A DNA stretch of 64,000 nucleotides, taken from the NCBI RefSeq assembly GCF_053078305.1, contig NZ_CP166879.1, one strand, 5' to 3'. Under the pieces are notes generated by a model. It was not told where the DNA came from and did no database searches. It worked only from the letters and a program-made list of their open reading frames with translations. Below are positions 55,276 to 59,450 of this stretch, piece after piece (position 1 is the first letter of the stretch; every line of letters starts with the position of its first letter). The translations under genes were made by a program, and so were the position numbers.

Positions 55276-58176
55276 ATGCTGCCAGACCAGCGACCAGCGA
55301 CCAGCGACCAGCGACCAGCGACCAGCGACCAGCGACCAGCGACCAGCGACCAGCGACCAGCGACCAGCGACCAGCGACCAGCGACCAGCGACCAGCGACC
55401 AGCGACCAGCGACCAGCGACCAGCGACCAGCGACCAGCGACCAGCGACCAGCGACCAGCGACCAGCGACCAGCGACCAGCGACCAGCGACCAGCGACCAG
55501 CGACCAGCGACCAGCGACCAGCGACCAGCGACCAGCGACCAGCGACCAGCGACCAGCGACCAGCGACCAGCGACCAGCGACCAGCGACCAGCGACCAGCG
55601 ACCAGCGACCAGCGACCAGCGACCAGCGACCAGCGACCAGCGACCAGCGACCAGCGACCAGCGACCAGCGACCAGCGACCAGCGACCAGCGACCAGCGAC
55701 CAGCGACCAGCGACCAGCGACCAGCGACCAGCGACCAGCGACCAGCGACCAGCGACCAGCGACCAGCGACCAGCGACCAGCGACCAGCGACCAGCGACCA
55801 GCGACCAGCGACCAGCGACCAGCGACCAGCGACCAGCGACCAGCGACCAGCGACCAGCGACCAGCGACCAGCGACCAGCGACCAGCGACCAGCGACCAGC
55901 GACCAGCGACCAGCGACCAGCGACCAGCGACCAGCGACCAGCGACCAGCGACCAGCGACCAGCGACCAGCGACCAGCGACCAGCGACCAGCGACCAGCGA
56001 CCAGCGACCAGCGACCAGCGACCAGCGACCAGCGACCAGCGACCAGCGACCAGCGACCAGCGACCAGCGACCAGCGACCAGCGACCAGCGACCAGCGACC
56101 AGCGACCAGCGACCAGCGACCAGCGACCGTAAATCAAGAAAGTCTGTAAAATCTGTTGAACCAGACATTGCCGACCGGGCTAACAGCTGGCTCAAATCTT
56201 ATGGACTTGATTACAAACTGGAGCAGGCACCACTTAACAACGAGATCGATAACGCACTGGATGCTTATTTTTCGAAAAATGGCGGCGCAGGCGGTAATCG
56301 TCCCGACGTAAAACTCCTTGTTCAGGACAAATACGGCAAGCAGTATCCCGTTCTCATCGAGTATAAAGGCTACAAGGACAGGCTTATCAGACTTGGCAGC
56401 AACGGTATTATTGAGAACAAAGATGCCAGAAAAGAATGGAATTTTAAAAATATTAATGGATACGCGGTGAATGGCGCAGTCCATTATGCCAACGCACTTC
56501 TTCAGTTCACCAATTACCCTGATATTATTGCTATTGGTATGACCGGCTGGCGCGATGATGATACAGGCGAACTGCATCATGAAATCGGCGTGTGGTACGT
56601 ATCAAAGAATAATTTAGGAGCCGGGCAGAAGGTTGGTGAATTCACCGACTTATCATTCCTTGCTGACAAAAATGTTGATGGATTTCTCAACAAGATAAAG
56701 CTGCTTAATCTTCCTCCCGAAGAACTGGAAAAAATCAAGGCCAGCAAAGAGGAAGAGATAGACACGCGACTTTCCCGTCTGAATAACGATATTTACCAGA
56801 ATGAAAAGGGGCTTGGTGAAAGCGATCGTGTTTACCTTGTTGTGGCTACCGTTATTGCAACGTTGGGGATTCCGGGAAAGTTAGCACCGCTGGATAAAAA
56901 AGAACTGACCTCTTCAACGGAGGAGGACTTGCGTGATGGTGATATTATTTTCAGGAAAATAAGGAATTTTTTAAGGCTGAAAGCTGTTCCTGAAACAAAA
57001 AGAGAAATGATTTTGCGCTCGTTGCAAAATACGCTGTGGACTGAAAACATTAACAAACCAGTCAACGGTGAAAGCCAGTTAAAGCGCGTGTTTGTTAAAG
57101 TTGTTGATGATCTTGGGGAGTATTACAAAATCGGACTGACCACCGATTTTACGGGCAAACTGTTTAATGAGATGTATCGCTGGCTTGGATTTACGCAGGA
57201 CAAACTCAATGACGTCGTTCTGACACCACCTTATGTTGCCACATTGCTGGCACGACTCGCCAGAGTAAACAAAGATTCCTATGTGTGGGATTTTGCTACA
57301 GGTTCTGCGGGATTGCTTGTGGCTGCAATGAATGAAATGCTCATTGACGCCAGAGAAAATATTCACTCACCGAATGAACTACAACTTAAGGAAGCGCAAA
57401 TCAAGGCTGAACAGCTTCTTGGCCTTGAGGTGTTATCCAGTATTTATATGCTGGCCATCCTGAATATGATTTTGATGGGGGATGGTAGCTCGAATATCCT
57501 CAATAAAGACTCGCTAGCCGATTTTGACGGCAAGTATGGATTTGGGAAAACAGGAGAAAAATTCCCTGCGGACGCATTTATTCTCAATCCTCCGTATTCA
57601 GCTAAAGGTAACGGCATGATTTTCGTGCAGAAGGCGCTGTCGATGATGGATAAAGGCTATGCTGCAGTGATTATCCAGAGTTCAGCCGGCACAGGAAAGG
57701 CTACGGAGTACAACAAAAAAATACTCAAGGAAAATACCTTGCTGGCAAGCATCAAAATGCCTGCGGATCTGTTTATTGGTAAATCAAGCGTTCAGACGTA
57801 CATTTACGTTTTTCAGGTAAAAATTCCGCATAACGCGAAACAGGCTGTTAAGTTTATCGACTTTTCCAATGACGGCTATGCTCGCTCTAATCGCAAAAAG
57901 GCAAGAAACAATCTTGTTGATGCCGATCGTGCAAAAGAGCGTTATCAGGAGGTTGTGGATCTGGTTCACTTCGGGAAAGGTTGCCTTAATATCTTTACGG
58001 AGGATGAATATTTTGAGGGAACAATCGATCCTGATAGTGGTGAGGACTGGAATCAGACTAGGCCAGTAGATACCAGACCGACACTGGAGGATTTTAAAAA
58101 GACGGTTGGCGACTATCTTGCGTGGGAGGTGTCAAAACTTCTTCAGGGGCGTGATGCGTCAGAAAAAAAGCAGTAA
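55276..58176 (+). CDS. Restriction-modification polypeptide: 40 x PATSDQR repeat leader + PD-ExK (HSDR_N-like) nuclease + gamma-class N6-adenine methyltransferase (BcgI-A-like, Type IIB/IIG layout)
   Basis: ATG 55276 follows AAAAGGA. After the repeat come NRPDVKLLV...YPVLIEYKG (PD...ExK), then YVWDFATGSAGLL (SAM motif I) and FILNPPYS (motif IV). No SF2 translocase domain is present. It is followed by an HsdS-like gene. Confidence 0.75.
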   Translation: MLPDQRPATSDQRPATSDQRPATSDQRPATSDQRPATSDQRPATSDQRPATSDQRPATSDQRPATSDQRPATSDQRPATSDQRPATSDQRPATSDQRPATSDQRPATSDQRPATSDQRPATSDQRPATSDQRPATSDQRPATSDQRPATSDQRPATSDQRPATSDQRPATSDQRPATSDQRPATSDQRPATSDQRPATSDQRPATSDQRPATSDQRPATSDQRPATSDQRPATSDQRPATSDQRPATSDQRPATSDQRPATSDQRPATSDQRPATSDQRPATSDRKSRKSVKSVEPDIADRANSWLKSYGLDYKLEQAPLNNEIDNALDAYFSKNGGAGGNRPDVKLLVQDKYGKQYPVLIEYKGYKDRLIRLGSNGIIENKDARKEWNFKNINGYAVNGAVHYANALLQFTNYPDIIAIGMTGWRDDDTGELHHEIGVWYVSKNNLGAGQKVGEFTDLSFLADKNVDGFLNKIKLLNLPPEELEKIKASKEEEIDTRLSRLNNDIYQNEKGLGESDRVYLVVATVIATLGIPGKLAPLDKKELTSSTEEDLRDGDIIFRKIRNFLRLKAVPETKREMILRSLQNTLWTENINKPVNGESQLKRVFVKVVDDLGEYYKIGLTTDFTGKLFNEMYRWLGFTQDKLNDVVLTPPYVATLLARLARVNKDSYVWDFATGSAGLLVAAMNEMLIDARENIHSPNELQLKEAQIKAEQLLGLEVLSSIYMLAILNMILMGDGSSNILNKDSLADFDGKYGFGKTGEKFPADAFILNPPYSAKGNGMIFVQKALSMMDKGYAAVIIQSSAGTGKATEYNKKILKENTLLASIKMPADLFIGKSSVQTYIYVFQVKIPHNAKQAVKFIDFSNDGYARSNRKKARNNLVDADRAKERYQEVVDLVHFGKGCLNIFTEDEYFEGTIDPDSGEDWNQTRPVDTRPTLEDFKKTVGDYLAWEVSKLLQGRDASEKKQ
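55285..56128 (+). repeat. Perfect heptanucleotide tandem repeat (GACCAGC) x 120 plus a partial GACC
   Basis: I checked the phase at the start of every 60-nt line and it is consistent. The six-frame translations are perfectly periodic (PATSDQR / WSLVAGR). I saw no variant unit. Confidence 0.97.
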
Positions 58177-58211
58177 ACTCCCGTCTTGCAGAGCTTGAGC
58201 GGGAGTTTATT
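58164..58211 (+). promoter_or_regulatory. Candidate -1 programmed ribosomal frameshift (or A7 slippage) cassette at the A/S junction
   Basis: A_AAA_AAG lies at 58164-58170 in the correct zero frame (GAA AAA AAG). Then comes a stem, with core ACTCCCG (58177-58183) / CGGGAGT (58200-58206), extendable to about 12 bp over 58172-58211. The -1 frame is the S-subunit frame. Confidence 0.45.
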
Positions 58212-58250
58212 AAATCTGGTGGTAAATGGGAAGAATACACAATCGAAAGA

Positions 58251-59360
58251 TTGTTCAGTATTCAGACACCTAAAAAGAAATTTAATGCCAATAAATTAAC
58301 ATTTAATGGCAACTATCCTTATGTTGCCAGAGGAAGTAACAATAACGGCATAAAAGGATATATAGATGAAGATGAATTATATCTCAACCCGGGGAATACA
58401 ATTAGCTTTGGTCAGGATACTGCGACTATGTTCTATCAGGAAAACGCATATTTCACAGGTGATAAAATAAAGATTTTTTCTCTCAGGCATGGAGAGTTAA
58501 ATTCGCGAATTGCTTTTTTTCTTATATCAGCAATGAAAAAATCTTTTTCAACGTTTAGTTGGGGGAGTAGCTCTTTTAATGAGAATGTTCTCAATAAGGT
58601 AAAGATAAATATACCTACGTTTAATAATGTTCCTGCATATAATTATATGGTAAAGTATATAGAAGAGCTGGAAGCGGCCCATATAGAAGAGCTGGAAGCG
58701 GCCCATATAGAAGAGCTGGAAGCATACCTGATAGCTGCTGGGCTGAGTGATTACCAACTAACGGAAAAAGATTATCTTATCCTGGAACATTTTAAAAATA
58801 TTGAATTTTCAGGCTTTCCTGTTACTGAGTTATTCTCAGTGTGCAATACAGGAAACATATTGTCTAGAGACATCATAGAAAATAGTGGGGATGTTCCTTA
58901 TCTTTGTGCTAGCCGTGAGAATAACTCTGTTAGTTCTTATATCGCCTATGATAACTCACTCTTGGAAAAAGGGAACTGTATTTTTATTGGTGGTAAGACA
59001 TTCGTTGTAACTTATCAGGAGCGAGACTTTTTTTCAAACGACAGTCATAATTTGCGACTCTATGTTAACAATGAGGATGGAAGGACAAAGTTTGCTTATT
59101 TGGGCATTATTTCATGTATTTATAGATCTATTTCACATAAATATTCATGGGGGGATAGTGTTAGTAATAGAAAAATTAAGAACGATGTTGTTTGGTTGCC
59201 AGTAAAAAATAAGTCACCTGACTTTTGTTATATAAATGACCTTATTTCAGTTGTTCATAAGCTTGTCATTAAAGATGTTGTCCAGTACGCAGAACGCAAA
59301 ATGAACGCATACAGGCAAGCTATAACAAGTCGCGGTTATGATGATTCTGGTGTCAGTTAA
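58251..59360 (+). CDS. Specificity (S) subunit with two target-recognition domains (HsdS / BcgI-B-like)
   Basis: 369 aa from TTG 58251. The same frame is open back to 58155 with no ATG/GTG/TTG, and it encodes S-like sequence (RLAELEREFIKSGGKWEEYTIERLF). Two TRD-like halves are separated by a helical IEELEAAH repeat. Low GC. Confidence 0.7.
   Translation: MFSIQTPKKKFNANKLTFNGNYPYVARGSNNNGIKGYIDEDELYLNPGNTISFGQDTATMFYQENAYFTGDKIKIFSLRHGELNSRIAFFLISAMKKSFSTFSWGSSSFNENVLNKVKINIPTFNNVPAYNYMVKYIEELEAAHIEELEAAHIEELEAYLIAAGLSDYQLTEKDYLILEHFKNIEFSGFPVTELFSVCNTGNILSRDIIENSGDVPYLCASRENNSVSSYIAYDNSLLEKGNCIFIGGKTFVVTYQERDFFSNDSHNLRLYVNNEDGRTKFAYLGIISCIYRSISHKYSWGDSVSNRKIKNDVVWLPVKNKSPDFCYINDLISVVHKLVIKDVVQYAERKMNAYRQAITSRGYDDSGVS
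58659..58723 (+). repeat. 24-bp tandem repeat (2 full units plus 17 nt) encoding IEELEAAH in the central helix of the S subunit
   Basis: atagaagagctggaagcggcccat at 58659-58682 and 58683-58706, then atagaagagctggaagc at 58707-58723. Confidence 0.9.
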
Positions 59361-59425: not shown

Positions 59426-59450
59426 AACCCGCCGATGCGCGGGTTTTTTG
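59426..59450 (+). terminator. Intrinsic terminator downstream of the S gene
   Basis: ACCCGC / GCGGGT stem followed by T6. Confidence 0.7.

Follow-up and report, generated by a model that had tools for sequence, protein, structure and literature searches.

A conserved junction cassette points to −1 ribosomal frameshifting between the nuclease-methyltransferase and specificity modules of a BcgI-like restriction-modification system

How is a gene translated when no start codon stands where its protein begins? This question is raised by a restriction-modification (R-M) locus on contig NZ_CP166879.1 (RefSeq assembly GCF_053078305.1), located within a stretch of 64,000 nucleotides (nt) that was analyzed as a whole and is referred to below as the window. 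The upstream gene, A, encodes a nuclease joined to an adenine methyltransferase. The downstream module, S, which provides DNA specificity, is in the −1 frame relative to A. A first-pass annotation, made from the sequence alone, had proposed that ribosomes reach S by slipping back one base at the end of A. Our comparison of related loci suggests that −1 ribosomal frameshifting very probably operates at the A/S junction and uses a cassette of the dnaX/IS3 type. The elements of the junction, in window coordinates, are as follows.

55276..58176, + strand: gene A, zero frame; PD-(D/E)xK nuclease and gamma-class N6-adenine methyltransferase, BcgI-A-like
58145..58155, + strand: possible, weak Shine-Dalgarno-like (SD-like) stretch, with GGGG at 58146-58149 and GUGAU at 58151-58155; putative and much weaker than that of relatives
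58164..58170, + strand: slippery heptamer A_AAA_AAG in the X_XXY_YYZ register of the A frame; proposed −1 shift site
58174..58176, + strand: zero-frame stop TAA, one codon past the heptamer; ribosomes that do not shift would end here and release free A
58172..58211, + strand: stem-loop, putative stimulator; GC-rich core 58177-58183 / 58200-58206, 6 nt past the heptamer
58170..59360, + strand: −1 frame after the shift; linker AVNSRLAELEREFIKSGG, then the S module with two target-recognition domains (TRDs); stop at 59358-59360
58251..58253, + strand: TTG, first canonical start of the S frame and the S start chosen by PGAP, the annotation pipeline of NCBI; inside the D/E-L-F motif of TRD1

Gene A ends with TCA GAA AAA AAG CAG TAA and contains a run of seven A's (A7) at 58163-58169. 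Checking the register of the open reading frame (ORF) in the sequence placed the heptamer in the zero frame of A, as the first-pass annotation had stated. The GC-rich stem, in which ACTCCCG (58177-58183) pairs with CGGGAGT (58200-58206), was also correctly described: the minimum-energy fold of 58172-58211 is −20.3 kcal/mol, compared to a mean of −7.25 for shuffled sequences (z = −5.5), and none of 200 shuffles equaled it. An Rfam scan of 57900-58500 at E ≤ 10 returned no match, the dnaX element included.

Translation confirmed that the S frame is the −1 frame and that it has no start over a considerable distance. It is closed by TGA at 58152-58154, stays open from 58155 to 59360, and first offers an ATG, GTG, or TTG at TTG 58251. 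Its translation, taken from the shift point, is AVNSRLAELEREFIKSGGKWEEYTIERLF. The startless codons had been said to be genuine S sequence, and profile searches bear this out. The Pfam Methylase_S match begins at a K (58224) corresponding to profile position 3 of 168, and the PADLOC Type II specificity match begins at a W (58227) corresponding to position 7 of 341; both points are upstream of TTG 58251, which sits 8 to 9 residues into the S domain. The predicted single chain of about 1361 amino acids (aa) also holds arithmetically (965 + 396 codons), given a start at ATG 55276 and read-through of the 7-nt repeat array described below.

To judge how easily such a heptamer could arise by chance, we note that in-frame heptamers are rare in the non-repeat part of A, only 4 per 683 codons, so that the chance of finding one exactly at the junction is ~1% when the window is taken alone. 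The comparative data presented below make a chance origin untenable. The other heptamers inside A, which are also in frame (AAAGGGG at 56805, G_GGA_AAG at 56874-56880, and TTTTTTA at 56967), are likely due to chance.

Relatives of the junction were collected with the last 164 residues of A as the query; 80 loci came from contigs representing one genome per species, and another 30 were viral. For each of 115 usable loci, a script followed the A frame to its stop. The family loci match this query at 66 to 77% identity and come from at least eight phyla as well as from phage contigs; the hosts include Clostridia, Bacteroidales, Lentisphaeria, Campylobacteraceae, Pasteurellaceae, Treponema, Saccharibacteria, and Methylococcales. 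In 104 of the 115 loci, representing 88 distinct junctions, a perfect in-register heptamer is located 0 to 1 codon before the A stop and S follows in the −1 frame as an intact ORF of 370 to 425 codons. Whether homologous loci keep the heptamer, its spacing, and the stem together with a startless S had been put forward as a check, and the outcome of the comparison is strongly positive.

The heptamer itself is GGGAAAA in 62 of the 88 junctions, GGGAAAG in 14, AAAAAAG in 6, and AAAAAAA in 6. The stop directly follows it in 81 cases (TAG 51, TAA 27, and TGA 3), and one sense codon intervenes in the rest. UAG, usually the rarest of the stop codons, appears to be in excess at this abutting position (51/81). 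Every change between GGG and AAA in the first three positions also alters the Leu codon just before, at its synonymous third base (CTG GGA versus CTA AAA). Such coordinated changes make sense only under selection for re-pairing of the tRNAs in the −1 frame. At its last base, the heptamer varies with the host: AAG is found in Enterobacteria and most other Proteobacteria, AAA in Clostridia/Firmicutes, Bacteroidales/Bacteroidota, and others. This trend fits the special shiftiness of AAG in bacteria that have only tRNA-Lys(UUU), a matter discussed in PMC4066793.

The remaining loci depart from the pattern in several ways. L046 and L075 keep G_GGA_AAA, with the stop 8 codons further on, and L061, L049, and L082 have GGAAAAR. 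In L034 (Eubacterium minutum ATCC 700079, CP016202.1), A_AAA_AAA has lost one A, leaving A6 and placing S at +1; this is either an inactivating indel or a homopolymer assembly error. The distant L114 (36% identity) has two ordinary genes, with an SD sequence and an ATG overlapping the A stop. Four loci among the exceptions are true fusions of A and S.

The close enterobacterial alleles show the same relation between frames on different sequences. The window-type allele has GAA AAA AAG CAG TAA with the A7 run, and that of E. coli E7-1N7 has GAA AAA AAG TTG TAA followed by a perfect stem of 13 base pairs (bp). The run is A8 in one Salmonella allele and A6 in two other enterobacterial alleles, and A_AAA_AAG is in register in each. 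The O111-type E. coli allele has another A tail, GCG GGA AAG TAA, in which G_GGA_AAG abuts the stop, and a different 13-bp hairpin, UUCCCCGCUCAGCG...CGUUGAGUGGGGA, of −23.3 kcal/mol. The stems of the other enterobacterial alleles are −17.6 to −23.3 kcal/mol, again with sequences differing from that of the window. S stays in the −1 frame across all these E. coli and Salmonella alleles whatever the length of the A run, and the fact that A6, A7, A8, and GGGAAAG share one frame relation is unlike a mutational homopolymer switch. Eight near-identical E. coli copies among the matches listed, 99.4 to 99.7% identical to the junction query and each aligned in one piece, show no change in run length. 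Methylome papers on O111 Shiga toxin–producing E. coli and on Bibersteinia do not describe the system.

Stem conservation was analyzed in a gap-free alignment (A3) of 77 junctions. The family stem has 12 bp (columns 13-24 / 40-51), a 5-nt spacer, and a 15-nt loop. Its cells are paired in 98.5% of cases, compared to 34 to 47% when the 3′ strand is slid by 1 to 3 columns. Pair 21-43 is U-A in 27 junctions, C-G in 23, U-G in 17, and G-C in 9, with one mismatch; pair 13-51 is G-C in 58, U-A in 6, A-U in 2, and G-U in 2, with 9 non-pairs. The covariation score of the stem was reached by 0 of 500 shuffles, and RNAalifold independently gave the same stem with one further pair. Covariation links the wobble position of a Leu codon in the 5′ arm with the first position of a Lys/Glu/Gln codon in the 3′ arm, so the pairing is not imposed by the protein sequence alone. 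As a control, natural single-chain genes that share the linker of the window (…SxRIAxLEREF…) were folded; their folds are weak, at −6 to −10 kcal/mol for the corresponding 60 nt, and the pairings are unrelated, while four enterobacterial frameshift alleles reach −17.6 to −20.8 kcal/mol over 45 nt. A different role for the hairpin, that of an intrinsic terminator, was rejected: the terminator scan does not call it, and the family stem is followed by GAAUAU with no U run. The combined promoter and terminator scan found nothing promoter-like or terminator-like at the A/S junction.

Upstream of the heptamer, the family has the consensus nGGAGGAyGAmCGCCU, in which GGAGG ends 10 nt before the heptamer. 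This is the spacing of the anti-SD stimulator of dnaX. In the enterobacterial alleles L004, L005, and L101, GGAG is located at −14..−11. The conservation of GGAGG is only suggestive because the same stretch encodes Glu-Asp. The distance from GGAGG to the codon at which the −1 frame continues past the stop, ~17 nt, is too long for it to initiate S but suits stimulation of a −1 shift.

A start for S is not conserved upstream of TRD1. No ATG, GTG, or TTG occurs between the upstream −1-frame stop and the TRD1 Trp in 52 of the 88 junctions, and no ATG in 77; where starts do occur, their positions scatter. The −1 frame is usually closed just 12 nt upstream of the shift point. The TTG that recurs in relatives, at 58251 in the window, is the Leu codon of the conserved GDLF motif. 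In the unpaired loop, column entropy at −1-frame codon positions 1, 2, and 3 is 1.06, 0.68, and 1.55, and the peptide encoded after the shift site is conserved as I(D/N/E)ASLNEKL..V.WGEY. This −1-frame periodicity and the conserved peptide argue that the stretch is translated in the S frame even though it lies upstream of any start.

The product predicted from the shift has natural counterparts. The conceptual −1 fusion aligns with natural proteins of 1050 to 1070 aa that contain N6_Mtase and Methylase_S domains, such as a Campylobacter showae protein of 1058 aa, at 52 to 66% identity and 99% coverage. The junction is spanned by 98 of the 120 matches listed, and the alignment runs through it without a gap (AVNSRLAELEREFIKSGGKW versus IVSQRIADLEREFKVSGGRF). 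The closest of the matches listed, P0023 for example, are likewise gap-free, with AVNSRLAELEREFIKSGGKWEEY against IVSQRIADLEREFKVSGGRFEEF. The proposed A-S chain thus resembles the single-chain Type IIB arrangement, as had been suggested. In the window itself, nuclease, methyltransferase, and S are not one ORF (A stops at 58174-58176 and S is at −1), and the locus is therefore not a single-chain gene.

Fused and split forms can be compared directly in Lentisphaeria. Relative to their split siblings L031, L036, and L042, the fused genes L050 and L054 have a 20-nt deletion that covers precisely the heptamer, the stop, and the 5′ arm of the hairpin and brings S into frame. Judged by sequence, L050 and L054 are a natural “forced fusion” and a one-step route from split to fused Type IIB enzymes.

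Some single-chain homologues also contain heptamers at the boundary of the two modules. In the Campylobacter-like fusions L117-L119 and L122, A_AAA_AAG stands in frame exactly where A meets S (ILKKD, codons about 667-668), with a −1-frame TAG after one codon; the heptamer of L108 is A_AAA_AAT, and its −1 frame then meets TAA. A dnaX-like release of free A by these proteins was considered and rejected. Each of their AT-rich genes contains 18 to 27 in-frame heptamers, the boundary of L120 and L123 lacks one, and the −1-frame stop of the boundary heptamer in L121 is distant. With so many heptamers per gene and such inconsistency at the boundary, those found there are indistinguishable from chance.

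Together, these elements suggest the following course of events. With tRNA-Lys on AAA and AAG (58165-58170), ribosomes translating A would be held up by the hairpin and pause, and a fraction of them would re-pair one base back on A_AAA_A. The shifted ribosomes would go on with GCA GTA AAC..., giving an A-S chain with the junction ...DASEKK-AVNSRLAELEREF..., while unshifted ribosomes would end at TAA 58174 and free A. In relatives with G_GGA_AAA, tRNA-Gly and tRNA-Lys on GGA and AAA would re-pair instead. In most relatives the anti-SD contact, and perhaps slow termination at the abutting stop, would help. The S module would then be made mainly or only as A-S, and the efficiency of the shift would fix the A : A-S ratio. 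A-S together with free A could form the equivalent of an A2S protomer, and the excess of A would serve the cleavage complex. The protomer of BcgI is A2B, and once bound to DNA it gains further activity from free A (PMC3592470); an engineered M-S fusion of EcoKI needs added free M in vitro (PMC3510504). In the light of these two precedents, production of A-S and A from one mRNA would be a sensible way to build the enzyme. We somewhat favor stoichiometric control of A versus A-S as the role of the frameshift.

Could S be made in another way? A and S may be two ordinary genes, with a separate S initiated after termination and reinitiation at TTG 58251, ATT 58209, or a near-cognate codon; the heptamer and hairpin would then be incidental, or the hairpin would modulate the coupling. 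The B subunit of BcgI is indeed separate (PMC3592470), and PGAP starts S at TTG 58251 here and at GTG or CTG in other alleles. The normal SD and ATG of the distant L114 and the AUGA overlap in three TGA loci also fit this explanation, and GGGAG stands 3 nt ahead of ATT 58209. However, initiation at TTG 58251 would remove the 8 to 9 conserved residues of the S domain. ATT 58209 with GGGAG was rejected as the S start: sister alleles have GAA or GTA at this codon, and just 3 nt separate it from GGGAG. More generally, an S start is not conserved, being absent from more than half of the junctions (52/88), and the conserved GGAGG at ~17 nt is too distant to serve initiation. Reinitiation also leaves unexplained why an in-register heptamer is kept through coordinated GGG/AAA changes, and the linker, which is upstream of any start, is under coding selection. 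We therefore regard two separate genes as improbable.

Transcriptional slippage would place the shift in the mRNA itself, with RNA polymerase adding one A or dropping two in the A7 run so that some transcripts encode the fusion. Homopolymeric A or T runs of ~8 to 9 or more are known slippage sites in bacteria, and the A7 of the window and the A8 of one Salmonella allele come close to or reach this length. In contrast, 76 of the 88 junctions are GGGAAAA or GGGAAAG and offer only 3 to 4 A's, and two enterobacterial alleles have A6. RNA polymerase would need neither a register-specific heptamer, nor a hairpin at 5 to 6 nt, nor an anti-SD match, yet all of these are conserved. Since most sites are A3-A4, slippage cannot be the mechanism of the family; as the explanation for this junction it is very unlikely, although it may contribute a minor share in the A7 and A8 alleles. 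The least probable explanation in our view, with hardly any weight, is that the junction is a frameshift mutation or a phase-variable homopolymer, that is, a broken ancestral single chain that is now a pseudogene or is turned ON and OFF by 1-nt changes of the A run. Natural single-chain homologues exist, L034 with A6 in place of A7 and S at +1 indicates that run indels do occur, and another repeat-based switch is located upstream in the same operon. Nevertheless, 104 loci spread over many phyla share the −1 layout and an intact S ORF, A6, A7, A8, and non-homopolymer heptamers keep one frame relation, and the run length is constant in the eight near-identical E. coli copies listed. The first-pass annotation had allowed that the A7 run could equally act by transcriptional slippage or as a second mutational switch; neither is favored as the main mechanism, given that most members are GGGAAAA and that A6, A7, and A8 preserve the frame.

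Several points nevertheless weigh against the conclusion that −1 ribosomal frameshifting operates here. The loci were gathered by likeness to the A tail of the window, so the fraction of the frameshift type is biased upward. Some canonical −1-frame start precedes TRD1 in 36 of the 88 junctions, and in the three TGA-stop loci the stop forms an AUGA overlap with an S-frame ATG that could allow ordinary translational coupling; independent S initiation, poorly supported in general, may be the route used in these three. In the window allele itself, no SD-like element is well placed, with only GGGG at −18..−15 and GUGAU. The conserved peptide V-x-W-G is encoded within the 3′ arm of the stem, and the conservation of this arm is thus partly at the protein level, but V-x-W-G coding explains neither the 5′ arm nor the Leu-wobble/Lys-Glu-Gln covariation. 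Some transcriptional slippage may also arise at the window's A7 run, and low-level S initiation at TTG 58251 or ATT 58209 may occur as a minor route.

A matches Pfam N6_Mtase (E = 4e-21) and, over its full length, PADLOC REase_MTase_IIG (E = 5e-234), the models matched including one of 637 positions. An N-terminal PD...ExK motif (RPD...IEYK), DFATGSAG, and NPPY are readable in the translation; the match to Pfam VRR_NUC is weak (E = 0.0015) and below the curated cut-off. S matches Pfam Methylase_S in two stretches (E = 4e-31), which correspond to two TRDs, and its residues 20-364 match the 341-position PADLOC model Specificity_II. From model length only, we take the two PADLOC models matched to be derived from BcgI A and B. 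A PDB sequence search with A found no relative of solved structure. The locus is a cargo gene pair in a lambdoid prophage of E. coli, flanked by the Q antiterminator and hok at one end and by an esterase and the lysis genes at the other, and it is found in 29 of 5,426 complete E. coli genomes. No HsdR or ATP-dependent motor subunit is encoded by the neighboring genes. By these sequence criteria the layout is BcgI-like (Type IIB). PGAP splits the locus into a methyltransferase and an N-terminally shortened S. One further element was found by the terminator scan.

59426..59445, + strand: terminator-like hairpin with a T run, after S

Its position after S suggests that A and S form one transcription unit.

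Two repeats are present within the genes. A perfect heptanucleotide array, GACCAGC × 120.6, occupies window positions 55285-56128, between the sole in-frame start, ATG 55276, and the conserved N terminus of A; the stretch from the array to the nuclease motif has no start codon. Translated in the A frame, the repeats give DQRPATS, and the other two + strand frames, apparently also open, should read the same peptide. The array has 120 copies in the window, which keeps the ATG in frame, 80 copies in strain 2018-166, where the ATG is out of frame, and 64 copies in two other alleles, where a different frame offers an additional ATG. Judged from these alleles, the array looks like a device for repeat-mediated phase variation of the whole system. 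PGAP annotates a minus-strand “YXWGXW repeat-containing protein” at the array and starts A at an internal GTG, so that the nuclease motif is lost. The second repeat is a 24-nt tandem repeat × 2.8 (IEELEAAH) in the central conserved region of S (window 58657-58723). Otherwise identical alleles have S of 401 versus 393 codons, a difference of 8 codons. By analogy to the TAEL repeats of EcoR124I/II, whose copy number changes the spacer of the recognition site, changes in the copy number of the 24-nt repeat may alter the spacer of the bipartite recognition site.

The broader proposal is that a whole, horizontally mobile BcgI-like Type IIB clade, found in at least eight phyla and in phages, obligatorily frameshifts to make its DNA-recognition module and that the efficiency of the shift hard-wires the A : A-S ratio. 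We consider the case for this proposal evenly balanced. If it is true, the efficiency would be tuned by the host-adapted heptamer, the anti-SD contact, the hairpin, and the abutting, mostly UAG stop, and the capacity for restriction and modification would follow the cell's translational state, such as how tRNA-Lys is modified or how active the release factors are. It would provide a simple genetic answer to the 2:1 subunit problem of Type IIB enzymes. It would also explain how Type IIB enzymes pass between the split (BcgI-like) and the single-chain (AloI-like) form, here by a 20-nt deletion. Few conserved −1 sites are known in bacterial genes outside insertion sequences and phage tail genes, with dnaX, copA, and csoS2 as examples, and the junction would be among the most widespread cellular −1 frameshift signals in bacteria. 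In the literature searched, including Atkins 2016 (PMC5009743), GeneTack 2013 (PMC3711429), and Sharma 2014 (PMC4066793), no frameshifting in R-M or defense genes is reported; REBASE and RECODE were outside this search. The mechanism is of a known kind, and its use to fuse a specificity module to an R-M enzyme across phyla appears new. As far as the literature search shows, it would be the first recoding event described for R-M or anti-phage defense. If it is confirmed, hundreds of entries are misannotated as an “HsdM-family methyltransferase” with a shortened “restriction endonuclease subunit S,” and the junction would have to be kept intact when such enzymes are cloned or assigned to methylomes in REBASE. 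The ~90 natural variants of one cassette in diverse hosts would also serve as a model for the effects of the heptamer, hairpin, anti-SD contact, and adjacent stop on efficiency.

Among known systems, the closest parallel in the shift signal is dnaX, which produces tau and gamma. The heptamer of the window, A_AAA_AAG, is identical to that of dnaX, and the layout of the family, with GGAGG ~10 nt upstream, the heptamer, and a hairpin 5 to 6 nt downstream, appears to be the same. As in dnaX, two products would be made from one mRNA in a fixed ratio and would be subunits of one complex. In contrast to dnaX, where the shift yields the shorter product (gamma), the shift here would yield the longer one, which is closer to OrfAB of the IS3 family, the phage tail chaperones G/GT, and retroviral gag-pol. 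There is also no sequence relationship to dnaX, and the zero-frame stop of the present family usually abuts the heptamer.

As to the enzyme, BcgI cuts on both sides of a bipartite site (PMC3592470), and BcgI-type Type IIB systems combine an A subunit (nuclease and methyltransferase) with a B subunit (specificity), and the locus resembles them in its full-length REase_MTase_IIG match, its two-TRD specificity module, and the lack of a motor nearby. Unlike B of BcgI, which is a separate polypeptide, S has no conserved start and would be reached by a −1 shift. AloI, PpiI, TstI, and CspCI are single-chain Type IIB/IIG enzymes, and the predicted frameshift product would have exactly the architecture of these enzymes and of the natural fusions aligned above, which match it in the linker as well. 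Their genes, however, are one ORF with no heptamer-stop-hairpin cassette, whereas the gene in the window needs recoding and is predicted to yield free A as well. The engineered EcoKI M-S fusion (“Type IMS,” Roberts et al. 2012, PMC3510504) likewise joins the C terminus of the methyltransferase to the N terminus of S, and it is active and requires added free M in vitro, a parallel to the proposed assembly of A-S with A. That fusion is artificial and was obtained by removing a natural 1-nt overlap, and EcoKI has translational coupling, a real S start, and a separate HsdR motor; at the A/S junction described here, the corresponding fusion would be made by the ribosome.

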